Positions 3,977 to 59,278 of a DNA stretch of 64,000 nucleotides are shown here, piece by piece. Location: assembly GCF_003018115.1 (NCBI RefSeq), contig NZ_CP027457.1; one strand, 5' to 3'. The first letter of the stretch is position 1. Every line of letters begins with the position of its first letter. Position numbers and translations under genes: made by a program. The notes under the pieces are model-generated. The model saw nothing but the letters and a program-made list of their open reading frames with translations. It was not told the DNA's origin and ran no database searches. The DNA comes from Escherichia coli (lineage in GTDB: Bacteria > Pseudomonadota > Gammaproteobacteria > Enterobacterales > Enterobacteriaceae).

Positions 3977-4193
3977 CAGCTTTTCCTTACAGAGGGTGAA
4001 TAAAAAAGCCGGTACCCACAAATGTGGATACCGGCAGGTACAAAACAGCATGGTCAGATAAAGTGGTTTTTCCCGGACATAAATGCTTCCCCTCTCTCAT
4101 CCGCCAGAGAAGTATCAGTCCGTTGTGTGCAATTCCGTTCTGCATGATGAAGAGATTCAGCTGCCTTTTCGCAGGCCATTAACCACCATAAAC

Positions 4194-4229
4194 GATCGAT
4201 AGTAACGATCGATACCTGTTTTATCGATC
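4194..4229 (-). promoter_or_regulatory. agn43 phase-variation switch: three Dam GATC sites in the OxyR-binding region
   Basis: GATC at 4194-4197, 4207-4210 and 4226-4229 inside ATAG/CTAT-rich sequence, about 220-250 bp upstream of the flu start codon. Confidence 0.8.
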
Positions 4230-4348
4230 GTTTTATTCTATTGATAGCAGAGCGGTCACGCAAGAGAAACAGGAGGGGCATGAGGTGTTTGTATCATGTT
4301 TTCAGTTGGTTAACGCAATGTAATCAGGCATTTCCCCTGGCAGACTGT

Positions 4349-5502: not shown

Positions 5503-6219
5503 TCAGTCCTTAAGTTTATTCATAGAAAGCCGCTCTTGGCGTTTAAGCTCATTTAAAGTGAAAAAAGCACATTTATTAGATAAAATATAAATAGTTCCTA
5601 CTAACCGATGTAAGCGCCTCATTTTTTCGGGCATAGAGAATTCAGCATTTTTGACAAACATTAAAGAATCAACCCCAGCAGAGAACATATATTGTAAACT
5701 TTCCATATTAAAAGCCTCTAGTGGATTTACTTCGTTAATATCAATACTATTAACAGACCTCTCTATTTCGAGGTAATCTTCACTTGTCATTGAATAGTCT
5801 ATTTTATGAGCGAATTTATTGCGGATAGAATTCAGCTTAACTAAAGAATTTGCAATTGAGAGAGGTAAACCTAAAGCAACACAGATCTCCAGTTTTGGAG
5901 TAAAATATCGTGATGGTTTAACGAACTGCTCAGTACCAGGCTTCCTAACATTGTTGATGAATACTTCCAAGAAATTCTCAATCAATAGGCTAAGTCTTAG
6001 CAAGACTGATGCTTCGTCATTTATACTTAGTAAAGGTGCAAATTTTTCTGCGTCAAGAAAGAAACCGAGGTCATTATTAATCGCTACATATCCAGTTAGA
6101 TTGTTATTTGACTTCATATTCATAAAAACCTTATCTTGTATATTAGCGGCATATTGTACCATAAATTGAATCGTGGTTTGTTCTAAGAATGGACACAAGA
6201 ACTTCCTCTCCTCACTCAT
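5503..6219 (-). CDS. hypothetical protein with a HEPN-like R-N-x-x-A-H motif (possible Abi-type RNase)
   Basis: AT-rich ORF; motif SIRNKFAH matches the HEPN Rx4-6H signature in its common RNxxAH form. Start uncertain: track starts at TTG 6228, ATG at 6219 (MSEER), or ATG at 6123 (MNMKS, preceded by AAGG). Confidence 0.5.
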   Translation of the reverse strand: MSEERKFLCPFLEQTTIQFMVQYAANIQDKVFMNMKSNNNLTGYVAINNDLGFFLDAEKFAPLLSINDEASVLLRLSLLIENFLEVFINNVRKPGTEQFVKPSRYFTPKLEICVALGLPLSIANSLVKLNSIRNKFAHKIDYSMTSEDYLEIERSVNSIDINEVNPLEAFNMESLQYMFSAGVDSLMFVKNAEFSMPEKMRRLHRLVGTIYILSNKCAFFTLNELKRQERLSMNKLKD

Positions 6220-6265
6220 AAGAGACAACCATACTCAAATCTCCCACATTGCAGGAGATTTGAGT

Positions 6266-6868
6266 ATGAACACGTCACCGTGGAACAAAGACCGTATCAT
6301 CGCCCAAAAAAGACCACTTCAGATATCTCATATCTGGGAGATCCGAATCCGGCTTGAACTGGAAGGTAAAACGCGCGATTTAGCTCTGTTCAATATGGCC
6401 CAGGACAGTAAGCTTCGAGGCTGTGATCTGGTCAAACTCAAAGTATCGAATGTGGCATATGGTAGCTCGGTTTCAAGCAGAGAAACGGTGTTGCAACAAA
6501 AAACCGGTAACCTTGTGCAATTCGAGATAACCAAAGGGACAAGAGAAGCTGTTGCTGCATTGATAAAGCTTGGCAATTTGCACAGTAAAGACTTCTTGTT
6601 TCGGTCTCGGGTCGGAACTAATCGGCACATATCAACCCAGCAATACAGCCGAATTTTTCATGGGTGGGTAGAAAAGCTTGGTCTCGAAGCTTCGCTGTAC
6701 AGCACACAATCCATGAGAAGAACAAAACCTTACCTAATCTACAAGAAAACCAAGAATCTCCGGATCATCCAACTTCTGTTGGGTCATAAGAAACTGGAAA
6801 GCACGATCCGTTATCTGGGCATTGAAGTCGATGATGCGTTAGAGACCTCTGAATCGATTGAAGTCTAA
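6266..6868 (+). CDS. short (~200 aa) tyrosine recombinase, catalytic domain only (FimB/FimE-sized)
   Basis: C-terminal LLGHKKLESTIRYLGIE (His...Tyr box), upstream Arg and HSMRRT boxes; start at ATG 6266 preceded by AGGAG at 6254-6258. Confidence 0.7.
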   Translation: MNTSPWNKDRIIAQKRPLQISHIWEIRIRLELEGKTRDLALFNMAQDSKLRGCDLVKLKVSNVAYGSSVSSRETVLQQKTGNLVQFEITKGTREAVAALIKLGNLHSKDFLFRSRVGTNRHISTQQYSRIFHGWVEKLGLEASLYSTQSMRRTKPYLIYKKTKNLRIIQLLLGHKKLESTIRYLGIEVDDALETSESIEV

Positions 6869-6895
6869 GGTTGTCAGAGCTGCAATAGCAGCCCC

Positions 6896-6910
6896 GTGCC
6901 AGGAGCGGAC
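6896..6910. repeat. 15-bp direct repeat copy B (GTGCCAGGAGCGGAC)
   Basis: Exact match to 5385-5399, same orientation, 28 nt past the recombinase stop codon. Confidence 0.6.
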
Positions 6911-7026
6911 CTAACTAAGTTCATACAACATTGATTATTGAAGATTAGGTCAGAAATAAATACTTTATTTTGATAATTTAGTTACGTTAGAACACCGCAA
7001 TGTACAACGTAAAAATGAGGAATAAT

Positions 7027-8388
7027 ATGACTCGGAGTGAAATAAACGTCTGGGATGAGAGAAGAGGTACCAATAGTCATCGAGTGGAGGAGATTCGATC
7101 TGAAGCTCAGCACGACCTTTCTCGATTGATTCACTCGTCTGCTTTCAGACGATTACAATCCAAAACACAGGTTCTTGGTCTGGGTGAAAGTGATTTCTAC
7201 CGCACACGACTGACTCATTCTATGGAAGTCGCACAAATCGGTTCAGGTCTTCTTGCTAAGTTGAAAATAAAATATAAAGGTAAAGAGCAAGAGCAATTTT
7301 TACCAGATAACGCTCTTATGCAGGCAGTATGTCTCGCACATGATATTGGACATCCTCCATTTGGTCACGGCGGTGAGGTAGCTCTTAACTACTGTATGCA
7401 GGATTACGGTGGTTTTGAAGGAAACGGTCAGACGCTTCGCATTCTCTCGAAACTAGATAAGTATACCTTAGAACACGGACTCGATCCTACACGCAGACTT
7501 CTGCTAGGCATACTGAAATATCCGGTTAAATACTCGGAGCTAGTGGTTACAAAAGACAGAATCCCGGTCACTATCGGATCACCAAACTGGCTCTTTAAGT
7601 CATCTGATTTTAAACCTCCAAAATGCTATCTAGATTCAGAATGCGATGTTGTAAAATTTGCTCTCTCACCATTTACTGAACAGGATCGGAGGCTTTTTAC
7701 TTCCGTTGAAGATGGTCAAACTAAATCCGATCATAAAAAAGCTTCTTATAAAGCTCTCGATACAACTATAATGGATCTTGCCGATGAAATTTCGTATTCG
7801 CTGCACGATTTGGAGGATGCTATTTCTCTCGGAATGGTGACACGAGAAATGTGGATGGAGCATTTCAGTGAACATGAAACCCTATTTACTAACTGCCATG
7901 GAAAAATATTTTCCGAAACATGCCAATCTGTAGCGGATAGCCTTTTTGGTGAAAGTTACAAGAGAAAAGAGTGCATCGGGATGCTGGTTCACCTGATGAT
8001 TACAAGCGTTGAGCTTATTACAAAGAATCCAGCATTCGAATGTGGCATGCTCAAATATAATGCGGTCCTTCCGGAAGCGGTCGAAGCACTACGGTTGAAA
8101 ATTTTCAAACTGGTCAAAAATAAAGTAATTAAGCATGAAAATGTACAGCAGCTTGAATTCAAGGGACAAAAGTTGATTGTTGAGCTCTTCGGTGTGTTGG
8201 CGAACGATCCGTGTCGGTTTCTACCTGCCTCAACGAGGGAAATTTACGAGCGGCAGACTAGCTTAGACAAGAAGGCTGGTATGCGAGTCATTTGCGACTA
8301 TGTTTCAGGGATGACTGATGACTATGCAACAAAGCTTTATGAGAAGATCCTTATTCCACGCAAAGGGTCTATTTTTGACCATCTCTAA
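7027..8388 (+). CDS. dGTP triphosphohydrolase-like HD-domain protein (candidate anti-phage dGTPase)
   Basis: HD motifs RLTHSMEV, HDIGHPPFGH, DLADEISYSLHDLEDA, YVSGMTDDYA; alignable by eye to E. coli Dgt but AT-rich and shorter (453 aa); start at ATG 7027 with GAGG six nt upstream. Confidence 0.8.
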   Translation: MTRSEINVWDERRGTNSHRVEEIRSEAQHDLSRLIHSSAFRRLQSKTQVLGLGESDFYRTRLTHSMEVAQIGSGLLAKLKIKYKGKEQEQFLPDNALMQAVCLAHDIGHPPFGHGGEVALNYCMQDYGGFEGNGQTLRILSKLDKYTLEHGLDPTRRLLLGILKYPVKYSELVVTKDRIPVTIGSPNWLFKSSDFKPPKCYLDSECDVVKFALSPFTEQDRRLFTSVEDGQTKSDHKKASYKALDTTIMDLADEISYSLHDLEDAISLGMVTREMWMEHFSEHETLFTNCHGKIFSETCQSVADSLFGESYKRKECIGMLVHLMITSVELITKNPAFECGMLKYNAVLPEAVEALRLKIFKLVKNKVIKHENVQQLEFKGQKLIVELFGVLANDPCRFLPASTREIYERQTSLDKKAGMRVICDYVSGMTDDYATKLYEKILIPRKGSIFDHL

Positions 8389-8449
8389 CACGGTAAGAAT
8401 GATACTCTGAGTTCAATTGACCTATAAACATTAACCAAGGCATCTACCA

Positions 8450-8470
8450 GGGGGGATATCAAATCCCCCC
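8450..8470 (+). terminator. GC-stem hairpin downstream of the dGTPase-like gene
   Basis: GGGGGGAtatcaaaTCCCCCC inverted repeat about 60 nt after the stop codon; the T-tract is weak. Confidence 0.35.
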
Positions 8471-9414
8471 ATTCTGAATTTGTTCATGCAGAATCGGTGA
8501 ACGTTCTCATCTGAGCGTTAAACGCCAATAATCATTGATCTACACTGATCATTAATACACCTTAATACCATTAGCGTCTTACTCCGTTATGAGAACAAAC
8601 GCGAACTTCCGCTGTTCGCTCAAAGCAGACCATTCGCTCAGTTAACGCATCAGTGTCGTGCTAGAAGTAGAAGTGGTTAACAACAATGTGAGTTAATCAA
8701 CGGAGAGCAGGTCAACTCTAACCTGTATCAAAAAACAAATGTGTCATAAAGATGCCGCATGCCTTAATTTGAGTATAATTGAGACGGAAGTAGACGGTTT
8801 ATGACTAGATATTGTTGATATATAGCTATTTGAAGAGTTGTAGCGCAAGCGCATAGCCCAAACTAATAACGCTACGCCCCTTATCAAAGAGCGGCAACGA
8901 TGCACAGCTCGCACGAGACAATATTCGCACAAGAAATCAGGTTCGGAAATAACCAGCTCTGGCATGGCGGGGAGAGTATCAATGGTCAGGCTTTCGGTAA
9001 GATGCGGCGGGATGAGGTCGGCGTGGGTTACAGCAGTACAAGGTCGCCCACAGAGGGTAAGCCACAGCGTGGAATCCTCGGTTTCTATCAGGGATTCGGC
9101 GAAGCGGGCGCAGTTGTCGACCAAGACGATGAAATCCATTGTGGCATTATAAGGGAACGAACAATAGATCGAGTAAATCGCAGTCAGGGACAAGGATTGT
9201 AGTCATAGAGAAGTCTCCTGTAACGGTTTTCAGGAGGCTAATCCCGACGCCTGATTTCGCAGGCGCGGAAAGAGAGGATACTGCGACCATTAATCCGCCA
9301 CAAGTCATTTACGTACATAAATCGCGCAGTCAGATCCGACTCCCACTGTAGTTCTTGAACTTGATACCACATTTAGCTAATTTAGCTAAATTATCCAGTA
9401 TACCAGTGGTTGCC

Positions 9415-9660
9415 ATGAATATGAATGAAGATGAGATTTATCGCCATATCCGGCAGGCACTTTCCAGTGCGCCGCGTAACCAGTACACCGTCGAGCTACA
9501 CCTGCAAATGATTAAATATGCCGACGAACTGGAACACATTACGGCAAAAGCCTTTTGCGAAGGCACCGGTCTGAGCCAGAGCCTCGGTACCGAATTCAGC
9601 AAAATGCGTAACTTAACCCGTCGGTTGAAGGCCGCCGGTCTGAATACCGATCTGCTGTAA
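9415..9660 (+). CDS. small hypothetical protein immediately upstream of hsdM
   Basis: ORF 9355-9660 has protein-like composition but no convincing Shine-Dalgarno before TTG 9355 or ATG 9415/9421; ends 40 nt before hsdM. Confidence 0.3.
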   Translation: MNMNEDEIYRHIRQALSSAPRNQYTVELHLQMIKYADELEHITAKAFCEGTGLSQSLGTEFSKMRNLTRRLKAAGLNTDLL

Positions 9661-9699: not shown

Positions 9700-12138
9700 A
9701 TGGCTATCAAAAAAACCGAACTCTATTCTTCCCTGTGGGCAAGCTGCGACGAACTGCGTGGCGGGATGGACGCCAGCCAGTACAAAGACTATGTACTGAC
9801 CCTGCTGTTTATGAAGTACGTTTCCGATAAGTATAAAGGCGATCCTTACGGGATGATCGTGATACCCAAAGGAGCCAGCTTTGACGATATGGTTGCGCTG
9901 AAAAATGACAAAGAGATCGGCGACAAAATCAACAAAATCATCCACAAGCTGGCGGAAGAGAACGGCCTGAAGGGCGTCATCGACGAAGCCGACTTTAACG
10001 ACGAAGATAAGCTCGGCAAAGGCAAGGAAATGATTGACCGCCTGAGCAAGCTTGTCGGTATCTTTGAAGGGTTAGATCTCTCCAGCAACCGGGCCGAAGG
10101 CGACGATCTGTTGGGCGATGCCTATGAATATCTGATGCGTCACTTCGCAACCGAATCCGGCAAGAGTAAAGGGCAGTTTTACACTCCGGCGGAGGTGTCA
10201 CGTATTCTGGCGAAGGTGATTGGTATTACTCCCGATACGCCGCGAGATGCAACGGTTTATGACCCAACCTGTGGCTCTGGTTCGCTGCTGTTGAAAGTGA
10301 ATGATGAAGCCCGGCGCGGACTATCGATTTTCGGCCAGGAGATGGATAACGCTACCAGTGCACTGGCGCGGATGAACATGATTCTGCATAACAATGCCAC
10401 CGCGAAAATCTGGCAGGGTAATACGCTGAGCGATCCGCAGTGGAAAGAGGCGAACGGCAAACTGAAAGCCTTCGATTTTGCCGTGGCGAACCCGCCTTTT
10501 TCCAATAAAAACTGGACCAACGGGTTGACGCCGAAAAAAGATCCGTTTGAACGCTTCGGCTGGGGCATTCCGCCGGAGAAAAACGGCGATTATGCTTTTT
10601 TGCTGCATATCATTAAAAGCCTGAAAAGTACCGGCAAAGGCGCGGTGATCCTGCCCCATGGCGTACTGTTTCGCGGTAACGCCGAGGCAAATATCCGTGA
10701 AAATCTAATCAAGCAGGGCTATATCAAAGGCGTTATTGGTTTGCCGGCCAACCTGTTTTACGGCACCGGCATCCCGGCGTGCATTATTGTGATTGATAAA
10801 GAGCACGCCCACAGCCGCAAAGGCATTTTTATGATCGACGCCAGTCGGGGCTTTATCAAAGATGGCAACAAGAACCGCCTGCGTAGCCGAGATATTCACC
10901 GCATTGTGGACGTGTTCAACCATCAGCGAACGGTGCCGGGCTACAGCCGGATGGTGCCCTCCAGCGAGATCGCCGGAAATGATTACAACCTGAATATTCC
11001 TCGCTATATCGAGAGCGGCGAGCCGGAAGATTTGCACGATCTGACCGCGCACTTACAGGGCGGTATTCCAGCACGCGATGTGGATGCTTTGCAGGATTAC
11101 TGGCGGGTATTCCCTGCCCTGCGCAACGTGCTGTTTGCTGACGACCGTTCCGGTTACTGTCGGGCGCAGGTGAACGCGCAGCAGGTGAAACCAACCATTC
11201 TGGCACATCAGGAGTTTAAGGATTTTGCCACCCGCAGCCTGCTACCGTTTAAAGCGTGGGTGAAAGAGGCAAGTCTGGAAGAGATTCGCAAAGGTGATAA
11301 ACCCAAAGCGCTGATCCACGATATCAGCGAGATGTTGCTTGTGCAGTACGCCAACAGTGAGTTGCTGAACAAGTACAGCGTGTACCAGATCCTGATGGAT
11401 TACTGGGCTGATGTCATGCAGGACGATGTGTATGTGATTATGCAGGATGGCTGGCAAGCCGCCGCGCAAATCCGCGAGCTTCAACCGGTGAAAGGCAAAG
11501 ATGGCAAAAACATCTGGAAAGAAACGCACGATTTCGAGTTTACCAAACAGCGCTACAAGGCCGATGTGCTACCCCGTTCACTAGTGGAAATTCGCTGCTT
11601 CCCGGAACTGCTGGATACGTTGAACCGCGCGCAGGAGCGCAGTGAAGAAGCCAGTCGTCAGCTAGCGGAACTCATCGAGGAGCAGGCAGGGGAAGAGGAT
11701 CTGCTGGCTGAGGCGAAGAACGATAAAGATAAGGTGACGCAAAAGCTGGTGAATGCCCGTCTGGCACAGTTGAAGAAAACCCCTGCCGACCCAGATGAGC
11801 TGGCAGTGCTGAACCGCTGTCTGGCGCTGATTAAGGCCGAGGCCAGTGCGAAAAAAGCGCTGAAAGCCGCACAGGAAGCGTTGGATCGAGCGGTATTTAA
11901 ACATTATCCCACGCTGGATGAAACAGCGATTAAAACGCTGGTAGTGCAGGATAAGTGGCTGGCAACGTTGCAGGCAGGAATCAAGGCGGAGATTGAGCGT
12001 ATTACCCAGCAACTGGCGTCGCGCGTAAAGGAGCTGGAAGAGCGTTATGCTGAACCGTTGCCAGCGCTTGAAGCCTCCGTTGAGGCGTTGAGCGAGAAAG
12101 TGGCCGGGCATTTGCGGGCGATGGGGCTGGAGTGGTGA
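9700..12138 (+). CDS. hsdM: type I restriction-modification N6-adenine DNA methyltransferase subunit, long form (812 aa)
   Basis: N-terminal HsdM signature LWASCDELRGGMDASQYKDYVLTLLFMKYVSD, AdoMet motif DPTCGSGSLL, catalytic NPPF; about 300-aa C-terminal extension rich in charged/coiled-coil-like residues. Confidence 0.95.
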   Translation: MAIKKTELYSSLWASCDELRGGMDASQYKDYVLTLLFMKYVSDKYKGDPYGMIVIPKGASFDDMVALKNDKEIGDKINKIIHKLAEENGLKGVIDEADFNDEDKLGKGKEMIDRLSKLVGIFEGLDLSSNRAEGDDLLGDAYEYLMRHFATESGKSKGQFYTPAEVSRILAKVIGITPDTPRDATVYDPTCGSGSLLLKVNDEARRGLSIFGQEMDNATSALARMNMILHNNATAKIWQGNTLSDPQWKEANGKLKAFDFAVANPPFSNKNWTNGLTPKKDPFERFGWGIPPEKNGDYAFLLHIIKSLKSTGKGAVILPHGVLFRGNAEANIRENLIKQGYIKGVIGLPANLFYGTGIPACIIVIDKEHAHSRKGIFMIDASRGFIKDGNKNRLRSRDIHRIVDVFNHQRTVPGYSRMVPSSEIAGNDYNLNIPRYIESGEPEDLHDLTAHLQGGIPARDVDALQDYWRVFPALRNVLFADDRSGYCRAQVNAQQVKPTILAHQEFKDFATRSLLPFKAWVKEASLEEIRKGDKPKALIHDISEMLLVQYANSELLNKYSVYQILMDYWADVMQDDVYVIMQDGWQAAAQIRELQPVKGKDGKNIWKETHDFEFTKQRYKADVLPRSLVEIRCFPELLDTLNRAQERSEEASRQLAELIEEQAGEEDLLAEAKNDKDKVTQKLVNARLAQLKKTPADPDELAVLNRCLALIKAEASAKKALKAAQEALDRAVFKHYPTLDETAIKTLVVQDKWLATLQAGIKAEIERITQQLASRVKELEERYAEPLPALEASVEALSEKVAGHLRAMGLEW

Positions 12139-13445
12139 TGGTGGATTTAATGGTGAATGAGCAACGATCAGGTACGGCGGGGAAAGATGTGCCTGCGGGG
12201 TATAAGCTGACTGAGGTGGGGGTGATTCCTGAGGATTGGGTAGTAATCTCTATTGATGACTGTACAACCAAAGTTGGTAGTGGAAAAACACCAACTGGTG
12301 GAGCATCTGTTTATATTGATAGCGGACGCCCTTTTGTCCGTAGCCAAAATGTTGATTGGGGAAGATTAGATCTCGCCGATGTCGTACATATTACAGATGA
12401 AACCCATAACACATTCTCTGGTTCTGAAATTCAGCAAGATGATGTTTTACTCAACATAACGGGAGCATCTATCGGCCGATGCGCTAAAGCTGATTTTAGG
12501 GTTATAGGTGGTAATGTTAACCAACATGTTTGCATCATCAGAACAGAGGCAAAAAAACTCTCCCCATCCTTACTGGTTGAATTAATCAATTCAAATTATG
12601 GACAAAACCAGATTGATAGTTATCAAGCCGGAGGAAACAGAGAAGGACTGAATTTTTCTCAAGTTAAAAATCTTAAGTTTGCTATTACACCAAACTCCCT
12701 TGAACAAACGGAAATTGTCAGAACATTAAATGATATTAATGCATTCACTCTCGCTCTGGAAAACTTAATTGCTAAAAAACAGGCCATAAAAGCCGCTGCT
12801 ATGCAACAACTACTCACCGGTAAAACCCGTTTGCCGCAGTTTGCGTTGCGCAAAGATGGATCTGCTAAGAGATATAAAAAGAGCAAGTTGGGGGAGACTC
12901 CAGAAGATTGGGCAGTTAATAATATTGGAGATTTATTCTCCATTACCGCAGGAGGAGATTTAAGACAGTCTGAATTCTCTAATATTCAATCTGAAAAACA
13001 TCTTTACCCTATTTATTCCAATGCAATTAGTCATTATGGTTTATATGGCTATTGCCAGAGTTATGATTATGTTGGTGACTATCTAACAATCACTGCGAGG
13101 GGAGGAATCGGCCATGCCGTGGCAAGAAAAGGAAGATTCTGTGCAATTGGACGATTATTAGTTCTTAGTCCAAAAGGAGATTCAAACGTAAAATTTTATG
13201 AAGGGTATATAAACCAATACTTATCATTTGCAAATGAGAGCACTGGAGTCCCTCAACTTACAGCTCCTCAAGTTGCAAAATATCCGGTTGTTTCCCCATG
13301 CATTGAAGAACAAACCGCCATCGCCACCATCCTCTCCGATATGGACAAGGAAATTCAGACCCTGCAACAACGTCTGGACAAAACCCGTCAGCTTAAACAG
13401 GGGATGATGCAGGAGCTGTTAACCGGGAAAACACGCTTAATATAA
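12138..13445 (+). CDS. hsdS: type I restriction-modification specificity subunit with two target-recognition domains
   Basis: Two AT-rich variable blocks separated and followed by conserved LTGKTRL repeats ([13 protein letters not shown] and [11 protein letters not shown]); ATG at 12138 overlaps the hsdM TGA (TGATG). Confidence 0.9.
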
Positions 13446-13456
13446 AAGGGAAACCT

Positions 13457-14107
13457 ATGACTACAGCGCCAGCCTCAATCCGCAAAAAGCCCTGATCTGG
13501 CGTATCGTCCATCGGGACAATATCCCGTGGATTCTGGACAATGGTCTGCACTGCGGCAACAGCCCGGTGCAGGCTGCTAACTGGATCAATATCGGCAACC
13601 CGGAGCTTATCGGCAAGCACGCCGGACATCCGGTACCTGTCGGGACGGGCGGGACACTGCGTGACTATGTGCCATTTTATTTTACCCCCTTCTCGCCAAT
13701 GCTGATGAACATCCACAGCGGACGTGGCGGCATTAAGCAACGCCCCAATGAAGAGATCGTTATTCTGGTCAGCAGCCTGCGGCACGTGGCAGCACACGAC
13801 GTGCCCTTCGTGTTTACCGACAGCCATGCTTACTATAACTGGACCAACTACTACACCAGTCTGGATAGTCTGGACCAGATCGACTGGCCCATTTTGCAGG
13901 CACGGGACTTTCGCCGCGATCCAGACGATCCGGCTAAATTTGAACGCTATCAGGCAGAGGCGCTAATCTGGCAACACTGCCCGATCTCGCTGCTGGATGG
14001 GATAATTTGTTACAGCGAAGAGGTCAGGTTACAATTAGAACAATGGTTGTTTCAGCGTAATCTAACAATGTCCGTTCACACACGGGCTGGATTGGTACTT
14101 CTCATGA
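13457..14107 (+). pseudogene. darT: DarT-like (DUF4433) DNA ADP-ribosyltransferase gene, reading frame disrupted as read
   Basis: ATG 13457 with AAGGG upstream opens a frame that stops after 12 codons; DarT-like sequence ([46 protein letters not shown]) continues in the -1 frame from about 13459 to 14103; the original frame resumes for the last codons before a TGA that overlaps the darG ATG (ATGA at 14104-14107). Confidence 0.55.
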
Positions 14108-15171
14108 TCACATATACACAAGGCAATTTACTGGACGCACCGGTGGAAGCTCTGGTGAATACGGTTAATACCGTCGGTGTCATGGGGAAAGGCATCGCGT
14201 TGATGTTTAAAGAGCGCTTCCACGAAAATATGAAAGCCTATGCCCTCGCCTGCAAACAAAAGCAGGTGATCACCGGCAAAATGTTCATTACCGAAACCGG
14301 GGAACTGATGGGACCGCGCTGGATTGTTAATTTTCCGACCAAACAGCACTGGCGCGCTGACTCCCGCATGGGGTGGATTGAAGATGGCTTACAAGACTTA
14401 CGTCGATTTTTGATTGAAGAGAACGTGCAATCCATCGCCATTCCACCGCTGGGCGCAGGCAACGGTGACTTGAACTGGCCGGACGTTCGGGCGCAGATTG
14501 AATCTGCCCTTGGCGACCTTCAGGACGTTGATATCCTGATTTACCAACCAACTGAAAAATACCAGAACGTTGCCAAAAGCACTGGCGTAAAAAAGCTCAC
14601 TCCCGCCAGAGCCGCCATCGCTGAACTGGTGCGTCGCTACTGGGTATTGGGGATGGAGTGCAGCCTACTGGAAATCCAGAAACTGGCCTGGCTGTTACAA
14701 CGCGCCCTTAAGCAGCATCAACAGGACGATATCCTCAAACTGCGGTTTGAAGCTCACTATTATGGCCCCTATGCGCCCAATCTGAACCATCTGCTTAATG
14801 CGCTGGACGGCACCTATCTTAAAGCCGAGAAACGCATCCCGGACAGCCAACCGCTGGATGTGATCTGGTTTAACGATCAGAAAAAAGAACACGTTAATGC
14901 GTATCTGAACAGCGAAGCCAGAGAGTGGCTACCGGCGCTGGAGCAGGTCAGCCAGTTAATTGACGGCTTTGAATCGCCGTTTGGTCTGGAGCTGCTGGCA
15001 ACCGTAGACTGGTTGCTGAGCCGTGGCGAATGTCAACCAACACTGGATTCCGTTAAGGAAGGGCTGCACCAGTGGCCTGCGGGCGAACACTGGGCCAGCC
15101 GTAAGTTGAGGCTGTTTGATAATAATAATCTGCAATTTGCCATTAACCGCGTAATGGAGTTCCATTGCTGA
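14104..15171 (+). CDS. darG: DarG-like macrodomain protein (predicted antitoxin / ADP-ribosyl hydrolase)
   Basis: [39 protein letters not shown] with IPPLGAGNG is a macrodomain signature matching my recollection of DarG; as read it is fused in frame to the upstream DarT-like region (track ORF 13567-15171). Confidence 0.7.
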
Positions 15172-15189
15172 GGGTTTAAGGAGCGCCTT

Positions 15190-18100
15190 TTGAGTACCGT
15201 GGGCCAGCGCGAACGCGCCACACAGCAGCGTCTGATTCAGTTTTTTGTTGAAGATTTAGGTTACCGCCATCTGAGTCACCGCACCGGGTACACCGGGAAC
15301 AGCAACATCGACACTAATATACTGAGCGCGTGGCTAAAACGGCGCGGCGTTAATGATACGTTGATCACCCGGGCGTTGCGGCAACTGGATTCCGCCGCCG
15401 CTCTGGGCGAAGGCAAAAAACTCTATTACGCCAATAAAGAGGTCTATCGCCTGCTACGTTACGGCGTGAAAGACAAAGAAGGCGCAGGCGAGCAGAACCA
15501 AACCGTGTGGCTGATTGACTGGGCCAACCCACAAGCCAATGATTTCGCCATCGCCGATGAGGTGACGGTCAAAGGCGAGTACTGCAAGCGCCCGGATCTG
15601 GTGCTGTACGTTAACGGCATTGCGCTGGGCGTGATTGAACTTAAGCGTTCGTCAGTGCACGTCAGCGAAGGCATCCGGCAGAATCTCGATAATCAAAAGA
15701 AAACCTTTATCCGCGATTTCTTCACCACTATGCAGTTAGTGATGGCGGGCAACGATACGCAGGGCCTGCGCTACGGCACCATCGAAACCCCGGAAAAATA
15801 CTATCTGGAGTGGAAAGAAGATAATCCAGGCGACTATACACATAAACTCGACTTTCATTTAAGTCGTCTGTGTAGCAAATCCAGGCTGTTGGATATCGTC
15901 CATAATTACATTGCCTTTGATGTCGGAGTGAAAAAACTCTGCCGCCATAATCAGTTCTTCGGCGTCGAGGCGGCTAAACAACATATTGCCCGTCGTGAAG
16001 GCGGTATTATCTGGCACACACAGGGATCGGGTAAAAGCCTGACGATGGTCTGGCTGGCGAAGTGGATCCGTGAAAATGTGCCAAACTCCCGCGTGTTGAT
16101 TGTGACTGACCGCACCGAACTGGATGAACAGATCGAAAGCGTGTTTATGGGCGTGAATGAAGATATTTATCGCACCTCCAGCGGCAACGATCTTATCGCA
16201 ACGCTCAATCATCCTAACCCGTGGCTCATTTGCTCGCTGGTGCATAAATTTGGTCGTCGCAGCGAAGCTGAAGACAATGCGGCTACCGACGCCTTTATCA
16301 CCGAATTACAGCAGTCCCTGACGAAAACATTCCGCGCCAAAGGCGATCTGTTTGTTTTTGTGGACGAGTGCCACCGCACACAATCCGGCAAGCTGCATAA
16401 CGCCATGACTGCCATTCTGCCGGACGCCCTGTTTATCGGTTTTACCGGCACACCGCTGATGAAGAAAGATAAGAAGAAGTCGGTTGAGGTGTTCGGCCCT
16501 TATATCCATACCTATAAATTTGATGAAGCGGTGGCCGACGGTGTGGTGCTGGATCTGCGCTACGAGGCACGCGATATTGACCAGTATCTGACATCAGAGA
16601 AAAAGGTCGATGACTGGTTTGAAGCCAAGACTCGCGGTTTGTCGAATTTAGCCAGGACCCAGCTTAAGCAAAAGTGGGGATCAATGCAGAAGCTGCTCTC
16701 CAGCAAGTCGAGGCTGGAGCAGATCGTTAACGACATTTTGCTGGATATGGATACCCGTCCACGCCTGATGGACGGGCGCGGCAACGCCATGCTGGTATGC
16801 AGCAGTATCTATCAAGCCTGCAAGGTTTACGAGATGTTCAGCCAGACCGAGCTGGCAGGAAAAGTAGCGATTGTGACCAGCTATCGCCCCGATGCCGCCA
16901 GCATCAAAGGCGAAGAAACGGGCGAAGGGTTAACGGAGAAACTCTCTAAACACGCCACCTATCGTAAAATGTTGGCTGACTATTTTGAACAAAGTGAAGA
17001 GAAGGCCGCCGCACGCATTACCGAGTTCGAGCGGGAAGTGAAACAGCGTTTTATTGAAGAGCCGGGGCAAATGCGCCTGCTTATCGTGGTGGATAAGCTG
17101 CTGACTGGCTTTGACGCGCCGTCCGCCACCTATCTCTACATTGATAAAACCATGACCGACCATACGCTGTTTCAGGCGATTTGTCGGGTGAACCGGCTGG
17201 ACGGTGAGGATAAAGAGTATGGCTATATTATCGATTATAAAGATCTGTTCCGTTCGCTGGATAAAGCGATTACCGATTACACCACGGGCGCGTTTGATGA
17301 TTACGATCGGGACGATGTGGCCGGGTTGCTGAAAGACAGGCTGGAGCAGGCGCAACTGGATCTCGACAGCGCGCTGGAGATGGTTCGCAGCTTATGTGAA
17401 CCCGTCAAAACCCCGCGCAGCCTGCAGGACTATCAGCACTATTTTTGCGGTGAATCAGGAGAGAATCAGACTTCGTTAAACGAAAAAGAGGCGCTGCGCC
17501 TGACATTTTACCAGTGCGTCGCCCGTCTGCTACGCGCTTATGCCAGCATCGCCAATGAAATGCCGGAAGCAGGCTACACTGCCGAAGAGGTAGAGAGCAT
17601 TCGCGCCGAAGTCGCTGAATTCGAAAAACTGCGCTATGAGATTAAGCTGACCAGCGGCGATCTTCTGGATATGAAGCGCTTTGAACCCGCTATGCGTCAT
17701 TTACTGGATATGTATGTTCGCGCCGATGATAGCGAAGTGCTGATGGATTTTGAAGAGTTAAGTCTGATTGAACTGATTGTCGAGAAAGGCTTGGCGGCGA
17801 CCGTCGCCCTGCCGGATGATATCCGTAATAATCAGGATGCGATGGCGGAAACCATCGAAAACAACGTGCGCAAAACCATCGTGGATGAAAACCCGGTTAA
17901 CCCAAAATACTATGGACGCATGTCGCAGCTGCTGGATGAACTGATTACCCTTCGCCGACAAAATGCGCTCAATTATCAGCAGTATCTGGAACGTATCCGC
18001 GATTTGTGTAAACAAGTCATCCGCCCGGAGCAAACCGCCGGAGCGTGCTACCCTGCCACCATGGATACACAAGCAAAGCGCGCCTTCTATGATAACTTCG

Positions 18101-18285
18101 GCCACGACGAGGTACTGGCGACCCGCATAGATACGACGATTCGCTATACCAAAAGGGCAGAGTGGATTGGCGATCGTTTTAAAGAACGGGAAATTGCCAA
18201 CGCATTACGTGAAGAGACCGCCAGCTATAATATTGATATTGATGAGGTGATAGCGCTTGCCCGTCAGCAGAAGGAATATCACTGA
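15190..18285 (+). CDS. hsdR: type I restriction-modification restriction subunit (SF2 helicase/nuclease)
   Basis: 1031 aa; helicase motifs HTQGSGKSLT, VFVDECHRTQ, FIGFTGTP; apparent TTG start at 15190 with AAGGAG eight nt upstream. Confidence 0.93.
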   Translation: MSTVGQRERATQQRLIQFFVEDLGYRHLSHRTGYTGNSNIDTNILSAWLKRRGVNDTLITRALRQLDSAAALGEGKKLYYANKEVYRLLRYGVKDKEGAGEQNQTVWLIDWANPQANDFAIADEVTVKGEYCKRPDLVLYVNGIALGVIELKRSSVHVSEGIRQNLDNQKKTFIRDFFTTMQLVMAGNDTQGLRYGTIETPEKYYLEWKEDNPGDYTHKLDFHLSRLCSKSRLLDIVHNYIAFDVGVKKLCRHNQFFGVEAAKQHIARREGGIIWHTQGSGKSLTMVWLAKWIRENVPNSRVLIVTDRTELDEQIESVFMGVNEDIYRTSSGNDLIATLNHPNPWLICSLVHKFGRRSEAEDNAATDAFITELQQSLTKTFRAKGDLFVFVDECHRTQSGKLHNAMTAILPDALFIGFTGTPLMKKDKKKSVEVFGPYIHTYKFDEAVADGVVLDLRYEARDIDQYLTSEKKVDDWFEAKTRGLSNLARTQLKQKWGSMQKLLSSKSRLEQIVNDILLDMDTRPRLMDGRGNAMLVCSSIYQACKVYEMFSQTELAGKVAIVTSYRPDAASIKGEETGEGLTEKLSKHATYRKMLADYFEQSEEKAAARITEFEREVKQRFIEEPGQMRLLIVVDKLLTGFDAPSATYLYIDKTMTDHTLFQAICRVNRLDGEDKEYGYIIDYKDLFRSLDKAITDYTTGAFDDYDRDDVAGLLKDRLEQAQLDLDSALEMVRSLCEPVKTPRSLQDYQHYFCGESGENQTSLNEKEALRLTFYQCVARLLRAYASIANEMPEAGYTAEEVESIRAEVAEFEKLRYEIKLTSGDLLDMKRFEPAMRHLLDMYVRADDSEVLMDFEELSLIELIVEKGLAATVALPDDIRNNQDAMAETIENNVRKTIVDENPVNPKYYGRMSQLLDELITLRRQNALNYQQYLERIRDLCKQVIRPEQTAGACYPATMDTQAKRAFYDNFGHDEVLATRIDTTIRYTKRAEWIGDRFKEREIANALREETASYNIDIDEVIALARQQKEYH

Positions 18286-19001
18286 TGCCAATCATGCAAA
18301 TAGGCTCGTTACACTTGCTGGTCAACCGTAAGGCGATTAAGAATCTGCATATCAGCGTGCTGCCGCCTGATGGCAAAGTCCGCGTTTCAGCGCCGGAACA
18401 TATGACGGAGACGGCGATTCGTATGGCGGTTGCTTCACGCTTTCGCTGGATCAGAAAACAGCAGCAGGATTTCGCCAGACAGCCTCGTCAATCAGAGAGG
18501 GAAATGGTCAGCGGAGAGTGCCACTATCTTTGGGGCCGAAGATATCGCCTACTTGTGATTGAGCGTCACGGGCGTCACGAAGTAAAAGTTGCGGGAAATA
18601 ATAAGCTCCAGCTTTATGTTCAACCGGGAACCCGTGATGAAAATAAGGCATTGGCGTTAAGTGAATTTTATCGACATGAACTAAAACAGCAGGTGGCTAA
18701 GCTTCTACCTGAATGGCAGGACCGAATCGGTGTTCCCCTAACATTCTGGGGCATCAAAAAGATGAAAACCTTTTGGGGCACCTGTAACACTACAACAAAA
18801 CGAATCTGGCTCAATCTGGAGCTAATTAAGAAGCCGCCGGAGTGTCTGGAGTATATTCTGGTGCATGAACTGGTTCATCTTCTGGAACGTCACCATAATG
18901 CTCGCTTCCGGTTGCATATGGATCGGTTTATTCCTGACTGGCGTGAGCGTCGGGATTTGTTAAATAATATGCCGTTAGCGTTTGAGGCATGGGAGTATTG
19001 A
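18285..19001 (+). CDS. HExxH zinc metallopeptidase (M48/DUF45-like) coupled to hsdR
   Basis: HELVHLLE motif; ATG overlaps the hsdR stop (TGATG at 18283-18287). Confidence 0.8.
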   Translation: MPIMQIGSLHLLVNRKAIKNLHISVLPPDGKVRVSAPEHMTETAIRMAVASRFRWIRKQQQDFARQPRQSEREMVSGECHYLWGRRYRLLVIERHGRHEVKVAGNNKLQLYVQPGTRDENKALALSEFYRHELKQQVAKLLPEWQDRIGVPLTFWGIKKMKTFWGTCNTTTKRIWLNLELIKKPPECLEYILVHELVHLLERHHNARFRLHMDRFIPDWRERRDLLNNMPLAFEAWEY

Positions 19002-58213: not shown

Positions 58214-59278
58214 TTAACTGTATGCATGTAGCGTACGTTGGCAAAGTGCCGAACGTACGCAATCCTCTTTACCGAATCGGACGATCCCGACCATTTCATC
58301 TTCTTCGAAACGTTCCAGTGCGTCACTTAATCCGGAGTGCACGCCGCGAGGTAAATCGCATTGCGTGATATCACCGTTGACGATAACCGTCACGTTCTCC
58401 CCGAGGCGGGTTAAAAACATTTTCATTTGCGCGGCAGTCACATTCTGCGCCTCGTCAAGAATGACGACTGCATTTTCAAAGGTACGTCCACGCATATAGG
58501 CGAACGGCGCAATTTCCACCTTCCCTATTTCCGGTCGCAGGCAGTACTGCATAAAGGAAGCCCCTAAGCGCCGGACCAGCACGTCGTATACCGGGCGAAA
58601 ATAGGGAGCAAACTTTTCTGCGATATCTCCAGGTAAGAAGCCAAGATCTTCATCGGCTTGCAGAACTGGACGGGTGACGATAATCCTGTCGACATCCTTA
58701 TGTATCAGGGCCTCTGCCGCTTTTGCTGCGCTGATCCAGGTTTTTCCGCACCCGGCTTCGCCCGTGGCGAATATCAGCTGCTTACTCTCAATAGCCTTCA
58801 GATAGTGCAATTGCGCTTCATTTCGCGCGAGGATGGGCGAGGTATCGCGACTGTCGCGGGCCATACCAATGGCTTCTACGCCGCTCATCTGCACAAGCGA
58901 GGTGACCGATTCTTCTTCACGCTGCTTATGGCTGCGCGAATCCCGTCTCAGCACACGTTTTGCCTCGCGACGAGCTTTGATCACTGCTTTTTGTCTTCCC
59001 ATGGAGAGCACCTTGAGTTGTTTGTATTCATCACACGCGCCGTTGGCAGCGCGATTATGCGCACGAACATCAGAGGGTTGGCTTCCTTGTAAGCCATAGT
59101 TTGCTTTTGGATAAAATGCCGAAAAACGGCTACGCGCACCGTTTACGGCGTCGGTAACACATGAAAAGAAAGGATGAGGTTGAAAATGCAAAGTGACGAG
59201 ATGACTACCGGAGGAGAAAACTCCGCGAGTGGTGGCGCGTTGATTATCTAAAACATGTCCAGTACAGGACGTTACCAT
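58214..59278 (-). CDS. phoH: PhoH ATPase (phosphate-starvation inducible)
   Basis: 354 aa; Walker A GEAGCGKT; matches my recollection of E. coli PhoH. Confidence 0.9.
   Translation of the reverse strand: MVTSCTGHVLDNQRATTRGVFSSGSHLVTLHFQPHPFFSCVTDAVNGARSRFSAFYPKANYGLQGSQPSDVRAHNRAANGACDEYKQLKVLSMGRQKAVIKARREAKRVLRRDSRSHKQREEESVTSLVQMSGVEAIGMARDSRDTSPILARNEAQLHYLKAIESKQLIFATGEAGCGKTWISAAKAAEALIHKDVDRIIVTRPVLQADEDLGFLPGDIAEKFAPYFRPVYDVLVRRLGASFMQYCLRPEIGKVEIAPFAYMRGRTFENAVVILDEAQNVTAAQMKMFLTRLGENVTVIVNGDITQCDLPRGVHSGLSDALERFEEDEMVGIVRFGKEDCVRSALCQRTLHAYS

Follow-up and report, generated by a model that had tools for sequence, protein, structure and literature searches.

The hsdS gene in the stretch of Escherichia coli DNA analysed here (64,000 nucleotides, hereafter the window) is an ordinary, intact gene for the specificity subunit of a Type I restriction-modification (R-M) system, encoded together with hsdM (N6-adenine methyltransferase) and hsdR (SF2 helicase-nuclease). 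Very probably, it consists of a conserved scaffold holding two exchangeable target-recognition domain (TRD) cassettes, a rare pair designated A and X, of which X lies in an imported tract, and the AT-richness of these cassettes is independent of the host. The swapping of TRDs through a conserved linker is textbook Type I behaviour and was already known; the locus does not represent a new kind of system.

Locus and gene order

The gene belongs to an island with the order rptR-hsdM-hsdS-darT-darG-hsdR-M48 and TAGCTA operator repeats 5′ of rptR, as follows:

9372–9390, + strand: RptR operator repeats at the island promoter, two adjacent perfect TTTAGCTAA copies with TAGCTA in each
9421–9660, + strand: rptR, HTH-like repressor and gene 1 of the RRDM island (Pfam HTH_73; RefSeq WP_024175231.1)
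9700–12138, + strand: hsdM, 812 aa (HsdM_N and N6_Mtase; GC 0.53, GC3 0.635)
12138–13445, + strand: hsdS, 435 aa, allele A+X, WP_000228012.1 (Pfam Methylase_S, RefSeq annotation, AlphaFold, Foldseek)
13492–14107, + strand: darT pseudogene, DNA ADP-ribosyltransferase toxin (Pfam DarT match of the frame-1 translation; RefSeq pseudogene)
14104–15171, + strand: darG, macrodomain antitoxin, intact
15190–18285, + strand: hsdR, 1031 aa (Pfam HSDR_N, SWI2_SNF2, T1R_D3-like; GC 0.515, GC3 0.61)
18285–19001, + strand: M48/YgjP-like metallopeptidase, the final gene of the RRDM island

Perfect matches to TTTAGCTAA, the RptR operator motif as defined by Zhang et al. (2025, NAR, PMC12255303), cluster solely at 9372–9390. 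The three R-M genes are all full-length and in frame, and the C-terminal extension of hsdM (about 360 aa) matches no family. An intact DarT partner for DarG, which belongs to the RRDM definition, is lacking in the window, where the darT start has been lost.

The same seven-gene order and the same locus family are represented by the RRDM island of EPEC E2348/69 (RptR, Type I RMS, DarTG2, M48; PMC12255303). The hsdM, darG, hsdR and M48 genes of the two islands share 93–100% nucleotide identity, and the TTTAGCTAA operators and the HsdS scaffold are common to both. In contrast, both TRDs differ (C+D in EPEC, A+X in the window), and the darT of the window, unlike that of EPEC, is inactivated by a 7-nt deletion. 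Upstream, the two islands also have different neighbours: IS elements in EPEC, and an anti-phage dGTPase gene with an integrase remnant in the window. The latter is a tyrosine recombinase fragment of 200 aa located about 5 kb upstream of hsdS, inside the ORF 6173–6868, and the dGTPase gene sits between it and hsdS.

Domain layout of HsdS

The hsdS gene is an intact ORF of 435 codons, whose ATG overlaps the hsdM stop codon in TGATG. Its product matches Pfam PF01420 (Methylase_S) with E = 6.5e-30 in two stretches in tandem, and phmmer matched it to 1YF2, PacII S and EcoKI S. The AlphaFold model (pLDDT 90.7) shows globular parts at aa 22–183 and 246–386 and helices at aa 187–227 and 389–428, with 1YF2 as the best Foldseek match (TM 0.79, E = 1.6e-25). 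The predicted fold is thus the canonical TRD-helix-TRD-helix arrangement with two long antiparallel helices. The gene is divided as follows:

12138–12239, + strand: conserved N-terminal segment, aa 1–34, ending in IPEDW; 5′ recombination substrate for TRD1, 89–100% nucleotide identity among alleles
12240–12698, + strand: TRD1 cassette A, aa 35–187, globular recognition domain, AT-rich; 100% identical in A+B and A+D alleles
12699–12800, + strand: first part of helix D1 (5′ half of the central conserved region), aa 188–221, AT-rich, moderately variable, moving with TRD1
12801–12905, + strand: end of helix D1 and inter-domain linker up to PEDW, a near-invariant stretch in which the crossovers fall
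12906–13298, + strand: TRD2 cassette X, aa 257–387, short (131 aa), AT-rich; 100% identical in C+X and E+X alleles
13299–13445, + strand: helix D2 or distal conserved region, containing LLTGKTRLI (GC3 0.60; helix aa 389–428)

The segment 12699–12800 is 65–85% identical between alleles and about 98–99% identical when TRD1 is held in common. Further downstream, a run of about 40 nt (~12819–12859) is invariant across alleles except for the polymorphic site 12836. The distal conserved region occurs in variants, T/T going with cassettes X and D and I/I with B.

As for more distant kinship, TRD1-A is only remotely related to the TRD of PacII S, and a PDB sequence search with TRD2-X yielded no informative relative. 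HsdM has a match to the M subunit of EcoR124II (E = 1.3e-64) and better matches to those of Streptococcus thermophilus and PacII. Compared with Type IC systems, no TAEL repeats are present in the central conserved region, and HsdM carries the 360-aa extension.

Cassette reassortment among E. coli alleles

A comparison of alleles at the same locus showed that hsdM, the HsdS scaffold, darG and hsdR are 93–100% identical, yet the TRDs are unrelated. Within E. coli, three N-terminal cassettes (A, C and E) and three C-terminal cassettes (X, B and D) were distinguished, each of them conserved to at least 98% identity in all its occurrences. A megablast search with the six cassettes concatenated matched 249 E. 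coli records, in which all cassettes were at least 99% identical and the combinations were mixed. In a sample of 60 of these 249 records, all from complete genomes, on which the combination frequencies rest, C+B occurred 31 times, E+B 16, A+B 8, C+D 3 and A+X 2 times. Database proteins, with the contigs that encode them, added the A+D, C+X and E+X alleles, so that eight of the nine possible pairings, all but E+D, are observed in E. coli. Strains 2014C-4135, 1303 and C311 have A+X, 28RC1 and NE122 A+B, EH031 A+D, C4 C+B, 2014C-3050 E+B and E2348/69 C+D, and the assemblies of alleles L009 (GCA_017761505.1) and L010 represent C+X and E+X. This comparison shows that the six cassettes reassort by homologous recombination in near-invariant scaffold DNA. 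Hence the proposal of the preliminary description that the TRDs are exchanged by recombination is borne out, though through the comparison of alleles and not through base composition.

The allele of the window is rare, being present in five of 5426 complete genomes (strain 2014C-4135 and four others). The encoded A+X protein is identical in these five unrelated genomes and in many draft assemblies, which bears on whether hsdS could be a decaying, non-functional remnant that owes its composition to relaxed selection. Such decay has a precedent next door, since darT is a pseudogene and is deleted further in STEC2017-197. However, hsdS is as complete as hsdM and hsdR, the structure model is confident, and the cassettes are conserved to at least 98% across pairings, making decay of hsdS itself highly improbable.

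Base composition of hsdS

Along the gene, the GC content and the GC content at third codon positions (GC3) change as follows: 0.53 and 0.56 in the N-terminal segment (12138–12239), 0.39 and 0.26 in TRD1, 0.36 and 0.27 in the 5′ half of the central conserved region, 0.47 and 0.49 in its 3′ half, 0.37 and 0.22 in TRD2, and 0.49 and 0.60 in the C-terminal conserved region (13299–13442). The pooled flanking genes hsdM, darG and hsdR have a GC3 of 0.62, from which both TRDs deviate strongly (Fisher test, p = 1e-17 for TRD1 and 7e-19 for TRD2), while the N-terminal segment, the 3′ half of the central region and the distal region showed no difference from these flanks.

The preliminary description held that hsdS is a compositional mosaic, which the formal analysis confirmed. 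An unbiased best-interval scan of 9700–18285 returned 12241–13239 as the low-GC block (GC 0.382 inside and 0.522 outside), with a log-likelihood ratio of 34.5, whereas mononucleotide shuffles reached 10.0 at most. Recursive segmentation with single change points gave no change point, because the block is internal. The same description regarded both TRDs as markedly more AT-rich than hsdM, hsdR, the C-terminal part and the linker. This is correct for the first three (GC3 of 0.22–0.26 against 0.62 and 0.60) but not for the 5′ half of the linker: the stretch that had been taken as the linker, 12701–12879, has a GC content of 0.397, equal to the level of the TRDs, and only its 3′ half is richer in GC. 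Within the low-GC block, this bump is not significant in raw GC by an unbiased sub-scan (p about 0.15), but a targeted GC3 test finds it significant (17/35 vs 69/284, p = 0.004). The contrast is one between the TRDs and their own operon, not the whole heterogeneous window, where the TRDs are not extreme and their AT-richness is reached by about 11% of windows of equal size.

A difference in amino acid composition was considered as a cause: the globular TRDs would abound in Lys, Asn, Ile, Tyr and Phe, which have AT-rich codons, and the helices in Ala, Gln, Leu and Arg. Indeed, the TRDs have a somewhat lower GC content at the first two codon positions (GC12, 0.45) than the flanks, including hsdM and hsdR (about 0.47–0.48). 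This gap amounts to just 0.02–0.03, however, and about nine-tenths of the GC deficit falls on third positions; therefore, the low GC content is not an effect of protein composition. The GC3/GC12 split refutes amino acid composition as the main cause, and this explanation is scarcely credible.

Relatives outside E. coli

Isolated TRDs used as queries returned partial proteins of at most 266 aa and missed the protein of the window itself, and these searches were not used for claims of absence. Instead, relatives were taken from a full-length HsdS query combined with BLAST for each domain. TRD1-A has relatives that are 87–88% identical in Pectobacterium and 76% identical in Aeromonas, and TRD2-X has relatives that are 89% identical in Serratia fonticola and 82% identical in Yersinia, Cronobacter and Morganella. 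A donor of X was not found among these, the S. fonticola cassette being the nearest outside E. coli, and a tblastn search of plasmids gave relatives that are all below 60% identity and no plasmid-borne donor. A contig scan for exact 8-mer peptides of a chimeric A+X query gave no match and is uninformative on donors.

These relatives allow the composition of the cassettes to be read in other hosts. In Aeromonas, hsdM has a GC3 of 0.77–0.80 and the scaffold 0.6–0.9, in contrast to 0.12–0.44 for the TRDs; the A-like TRD has a GC3 of 0.26 within an operon of 0.7–0.8, and its four-fold sites are saturated relative to A (identity 0.28). The X-like cassette of Serratia has a GC3 of 0.24 and a nucleotide identity to X of 0.88, compared with 0.86–0.87 for hsdR and darG. 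The six E. coli cassettes do not differ in AT-richness, and this holds for the commonest ones too. Low GC3 (about 0.25) is thus a host-independent hallmark of the TRD cassettes of this family, which marks their boundaries but does not date their import. Since old cassettes in Aeromonas and Serratia still have a low GC3, composition cannot separate recent from old cassettes.

The step from AT-rich to acquired, as made in the preliminary description, is consequently invalid on its own, because every TRD of the family is AT-rich, even where the flanks reach a GC3 of 0.7–0.8 as in Aeromonas. A specific form of this idea is that the donor genome of both TRDs was AT-rich and that too little time has passed since their import for them to take on the composition of E. 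coli. The large gap in GC3 between TRDs (0.22–0.26) and flanks (0.62) and the position of X inside a tract with divergent flanks agree with it. Nevertheless, recent import from such a donor appears unlikely, given the equal AT-richness of all six cassettes, the Serratia cassette that is as diverged as hsdR and darG but still low in GC3, the synonymously saturated A-like TRDs of Aeromonas, and searches that revealed no AT-rich donor.

In E. coli, Serratia and Aeromonas, where operon GC3 is 0.6–0.8, the cassettes keep a GC3 of about 0.25 even when related ones are saturated at synonymous sites. This may mean that the AT-richness is actively maintained irrespective of the host and is no passive relic of a recent import, a tentative idea that we consider rather doubtful. 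If it were true, cassettes might turn over from a supraspecific AT-rich pool faster than they ameliorate, or selection might act on the DNA itself, for example through binding of xenogeneic silencers, tuning of expression or insulation from GC-rich flanking recombination substrates. The host-independent AT-richness of TRDs is, in any case, a minor question.

Crossovers, probable imported tract and darT lesion

The C+X allele follows C+B up to 12901 and the window from 12899 on, with zero differences. This switch of identity places one crossover inside the PEDW codons. The crossover positions are 12899–12901 for the C+X and E+X alleles and 12837–12859 for the allele of the window, which has private SNPs at 12860, 12870, 12885 and 12898. 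On the other side of the cassette, 13331–13800 of the window is only 83–98% identical to all non-X alleles, and identity returns to at least 99% from 13823. In this flank, formed by the distal conserved region and darT, every other record is at most 94% identical, and its divergent form is confined to X alleles. Two further features are defined by these data:

12837–13820, + strand: probable imported tract with cassette X, about 1 kb, comprising the private SNPs, TRD2-X, the distal conserved region and the divergent 5′ part of darT
13454–13460, + strand: site of the 7-nt deletion, with one CCTATGG copy lost and the darT start codon out of frame (RefSeq ‘frameshifted’)

An identical 7-nt deletion is present in the other X-bearing alleles (L009 and L010), so that all X alleles share it. 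It seems rational to propose that an A-bearing allele acquired the tract, from 12837–12859 to about 13820, from a diverged homologous locus, and that the tract would have brought in cassette X along with helix D2 and the darT 5′ part, which bears the deletion that destroys the start. Later crossovers at 12899–12901 could then have put X onto C- and E-bearing alleles. The order and direction of these exchanges were deduced by parsimony from a few alleles and not from a phylogeny with dates; alternatively, it may have been an X-bearing allele that received A. The linkage of X to a dead darT indicates that recombination tracts that change specificity can bring along lesions in neighbouring defence genes.

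Comparison with known forms of TRD exchange

New pairings of TRDs, and with them new specificities, also arise from hsdS invertons such as SpnD39III/ivr and those of Mycoplasma pulmonis and Bacteroides fragilis. In favour of a phase-variable shufflon of this type, with site-specific inversion between the expressed hsdS and silent copies in a single cell, are the recombinase fragment upstream and the reassortment of TRDs between strains. However, hsdS is single in the window, and tblastn detected no second copy or fragment there; no meaningful inverted or direct repeats occur in or near the gene, only weak ones at chance level. The integrase is a remnant, with the dGTPase gene lying between it and hsdS, and each genome has one fixed hsdS allele. 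We therefore assign a practically negligible probability to a shufflon. The outcome is the same as in invertons, but the window has no silent hsdS copies, inverted repeats or dedicated adjacent recombinase, and the variation lies between strains and is due to homologous recombination.

Exchange of TRDs, natural or in the laboratory, has been documented for StySB and StySP, giving StySQ and StySJ, for EcoR124I/EcoDXXI hybrids and for other systems (Loenen et al. 2014, PMC3874165). These classical reassortants resemble the window in their variable-conserved-variable-conserved hsdS and in crossovers in the conserved centre of the gene, where the first dimerisation helix or linker is encoded. They differ from it in belonging to another Type I lineage, as the HsdM of the window (812 aa) is nearest to the M subunits of S. 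thermophilus, PacII and EcoR124II, not EcoKI.

In the HsdS proteins of Helicobacter pylori, TRDs move between the N- and C-terminal positions, which is known as DoMo (Furuta et al. 2011, PMC3077401). Similarly, A-like TRDs are C-terminal in several Aeromonas HsdS proteins, E-like and C-like TRDs are C-terminal in other alleles, and X-like TRDs occupy both positions across 1568 representative clusters. Within E. coli, unlike in DoMo, the six cassettes were seen in their usual positions only. The position switches lie between species at 59–78% identity and are therefore old events.

Predicted specificity

The scaffold is formed by the N-terminal segment that ends in IPEDW, helix D1, the linker to PEDW and helix D2, with the two TRDs as cassettes. 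An established rule assigns one half-site to each TRD (Loenen et al. 2014, PMC3874165), so that a distinct specificity is predicted for the A+X allele. By this rule, M2S1 would methylate, and R2M2S1 would restrict, a bipartite target made of the A half-site, a spacer and the X half-site. One half-site would be in common with A+B and A+D strains and the other with C+X and E+X strains. A literature search for WP_000228012 or the strain returned nothing on specificity. If the rule applies here, carriers of the allele would be expected to have their own m6A motif and to restrict incoming phage and plasmid DNA in a strain-specific way. More broadly, the 3 × 3 matrix of cassettes offers a clean natural experiment for assigning the six half-sites.

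Gene content of the locus

The region 12100–13480 is identical over its full length (100%, megablast against complete E. coli genomes) to strain 2014C-4135, and gene positions in the window were worked out from the RefSeq annotation via the locus offset. Here, hsdS is already annotated, and the island is already published as the RRDM defence island of EPEC E2348/69.

Genes of the island in the window (RefSeq; Pfam domains in brackets)
9421–9660: HTH-like gene
9700–12138: hsdM (HsdM_N, N6_Mtase)
12138–13445: hsdS, 'restriction endonuclease subunit S' WP_000228012.1 (Methylase_S, two stretches)
13454–14107, including the lesion: darT, frameshifted (DarT)
following darT in the island order: darG (Macro)
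15190–18285: hsdR (HSDR_N, SWI2_SNF2, T1R_D3)
18285–19001: M48 peptidase (YgjP-like)

Two perfect, adjoining copies of the RptR operator repeat, TTTAGCTAA, are situated at 9372–9390, about 30–50 bp upstream of the repressor gene rptR, and the second copy also matches perfectly on the minus strand (9382–9390). These repeats agree with the published promoter architecture of the island (2025, PMC12255303).

Reassortment of HsdS cassettes between strains

Alignment of five E. coli loci showed 93–100% identity in hsdM, darTG and hsdR, and chance-level identity in the target-recognition domains (TRDs). Three N-terminal (TRD1: A, C, E) and three C-terminal (TRD2: X, B, D) cassettes were distinguished. 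A concatenated query of all six matched 249 records, every cassette being at least 99% identical (megablast), and a spread sample of 60 of these comprised 31 C+B, 16 E+B, 8 A+B, 3 C+D and 2 A+X alleles. With the further pairings obtained from a full-length protein search and per-domain BLAST, eight of the nine possible combinations were seen.

Cassette pairings and their sources
A+X: window
A+B: 28RC1
C+D: E2348/69
C+B: C4
E+B: 2014C-3050
A+D: HsdS protein P0174, on 335 contigs (protein search, BLAST)
C+X: HsdS protein P0183 (protein search, BLAST)
E+X: HsdS proteins P0185/P0186 (protein search, BLAST)

The island context of the contigs coding C+X and E+X matches that of the window. Since the 64-kb window holds neither a second hsdS nor meaningful repeats, phase variation within the cell was rejected, and the variation is attributed to homologous recombination between strains. 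Thus, the exchange of TRDs by recombination proposed in the preliminary description is supported, by the allele comparison and not by composition. This is a phenomenon already known: that crossovers in the central conserved region reassort TRDs, in nature and in the laboratory, has been textbook knowledge ever since StySQ/StySJ (PMC3874165).

Junctions of the proposed X tract and the darT lesion

The C+X allele equals C+B over 12138–12901, and from 12899 up to 14199 or beyond it equals the window; this overlap at 12899–12901 places the crossover inside the PEDW codons. Shortly before TRD2-X, on its 5′ side, the window allele itself has substitutions at 12860, 12870, 12885 and 12898, and all four are absent from every other allele compared, including C+X and E+X. 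Further downstream, the region from the distal conserved region to 5′ darT (13331–13800) is 83–98% identical to all non-X alleles, rising to at least 99% from 13823. In the most economical reading, a diverged homologous locus would have donated a tract of about 1 kb containing X to an allele with cassette A, with the left junction at 12837–12859 and the right junction near 13820.

The DarTG2 toxin, a DNA ADP-ribosyltransferase, is encoded by darT. Here this gene is a pseudogene: loss of one CCTATGG copy (a 7-nt deletion) puts its start codon out of frame, while darG is intact. The same lesion occurs in the C+X and E+X loci (L009, L010), so all X-cassette alleles examined share it and an orphan antitoxin hitch-hikes with the specificity cassette; the X tract would have carried the deletion along. 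In STEC2017-197, darT has decayed further by deletion.

Composition along hsdS

The whole hsdS gene has a GC of 0.41 and GC3 of 0.33, compared with 0.53 and 0.635 for hsdM and 0.515 and 0.61 for hsdR. Segment borders were set by allele conservation and the structure model.

GC3 of hsdS segments
aa 1–34, N-terminal conserved: 0.56
aa 35–187, TRD1: 0.26
aa 188–221, central conserved region, 5′ half: 0.27
aa 222–256, central conserved region, 3′ half (ending in PEDW): 0.49
aa 257–387, TRD2: 0.22
aa 388–435, C-terminal conserved: 0.60

Against pooled hsdM, darG and hsdR (GC3 0.62), both TRDs deviate strongly (TRD1 p = 1e-17, TRD2 p = 7e-19, Fisher), and the N-terminal, C-terminal and 3′ central conserved segments of hsdS do not differ in GC3 from the flanking genes. 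A scan of 9700–18285 without prior coordinates returned 12241–13239 as the best low-GC interval (GC 0.382 inside, 0.522 outside; log-likelihood ratio 34.5 versus a shuffle maximum of 10.0), although about 11% of equal-sized segments across the whole heterogeneous window are equally AT-rich as the TRDs. At codon positions 1+2, GC is nearly equal in TRDs (0.45) and flanks (0.47–0.48), so the AT bias is synonymous and does not reflect amino-acid composition. The TRDs had been described as more AT-rich than hsdM/hsdR, the C-terminal repeats and the linker; this is confirmed for the first two, but not for the linker (12701–12879), whose GC of 0.397 is not above that of the TRDs. Only its 3′ half is richer; the rise reaches significance for GC3 (p = 0.004), whereas an unbiased scan of raw GC gave no significant result (p about 0.15).

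Relatives outside E. coli

A-like cassettes were found in Pectobacterium (87–88% identical) and Aeromonas (76%), and X-like cassettes in Serratia fonticola (89%) and in Yersinia, Cronobacter and Morganella (82%). In other HsdS proteins, cassettes related to A, C, E and X sit either N- or C-terminally. All six E. coli cassettes have a GC of 0.36–0.43. In S. fonticola, the X-like cassette has a GC3 of 0.24 versus 0.59–0.69 for hsdR, darG and darT, and its nucleotide identity to X (0.88) reflects a divergence equal to that of hsdR and darG (0.86–0.87). Three Aeromonas loci show GC3 of 0.77–0.80 in hsdM, 0.6–0.92 in conserved HsdS blocks and 0.12–0.44 in TRDs; four-fold sites are saturated when A is compared with the A-like TRD of Aeromonas (identity 0.28). 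As these TRDs are AT-rich despite their GC3-rich loci, low GC3 is a host-independent TRD hallmark in this HsdS family. It marks out the cassettes, and alone is no proof of a recent or foreign origin for those of this allele. Its source may be either rapid turnover via an AT-rich supraspecific pool or selection acting on the DNA. No close donor was found on plasmids (relatives below 60% identity) or among database proteins; exact 8-mer peptides of the chimeric A+X query gave no match in species-representative genomes, a method uninformative on donors.

Subunit architecture and predicted specificity

The AlphaFold model of HsdS (48-sequence alignment as input) has a pLDDT of 90.7.

Segments of the HsdS AlphaFold model
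aa 22–183: TRD1 globular
aa 187–227: helix D1
aa 228–245: linker
aa 246–386: TRD2 globular
aa 389–428: helix D2

In the PDB, Foldseek places it nearest to the M. jannaschii S subunit (1YF2, TM 0.79), followed by the S subunits of EcoKI, T. tengcongensis, M. genitalium and PacII. The established rule (Loenen et al. 2014, PMC3874165) assigns one half-site to each TRD, and A+X should therefore read a bipartite target, one half-site of which would be common to A+B/A+D strains and the other to C+X/E+X strains. The distinct specificity put forward in the preliminary description is thus supported as an interpretation predicted from this rule. The comparisons did not yield the target sequence itself: TRD2-X had no solved relative in a PDB sequence search, the resemblance of TRD1-A to a PacII TRD is only distant, and no paper mentioning WP_000228012.1 was found.

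The M subunits nearest to HsdM are those of S. thermophilus, PacII and EcoR124II, that of EcoKI being much less similar. HsdM comprises 812 aa versus about 500–540 aa for typical Type I M subunits. Its C-terminal ~360 aa (aa ~450–812; 11050–12135) have no match in Pfam or NCBIfam, and the extension is kept in Aeromonas homologues (815–825 aa).

Surroundings of the island

A 200-aa remnant of a tyrosine recombinase and an anti-phage dGTPase with HD and HD_assoc domains lie directly upstream of the island (6173–8388). This pair also flanks the C+X and E+X loci and is absent beside the EPEC and 28RC1 loci, which gives the X haplotype an island context of its own. The roughly 1 kb separating the dGTPase gene from rptR (8400–9350) lacks annotation and includes a GC-rich patch (reaching 0.57 at 8900–9150); a 100-aa ORF at 8900–9202, without Pfam match, is called as a gene in metagenome contig L010. 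Related rptR-hsdM-hsdS-...-hsdR islands in E. coli GYB01 (L006) and Aeromonas veronii (L011) have a DUF262/GmrSD-family gene pair in place of DarTG, so the hsdS–hsdR slot is also a site where defence cargo is exchanged. Upstream are Ag43 and a GTPase-family gene, IS66-family tnpA/tnpB begin directly after the M48 gene (19453 onward), and Rfam matches at 3995–4231 and 58219–58412 are to minus-strand IS102 RNA and to an antisense RNA of the Ysr251 family; these surroundings are consistent with a mosaic genomic island.
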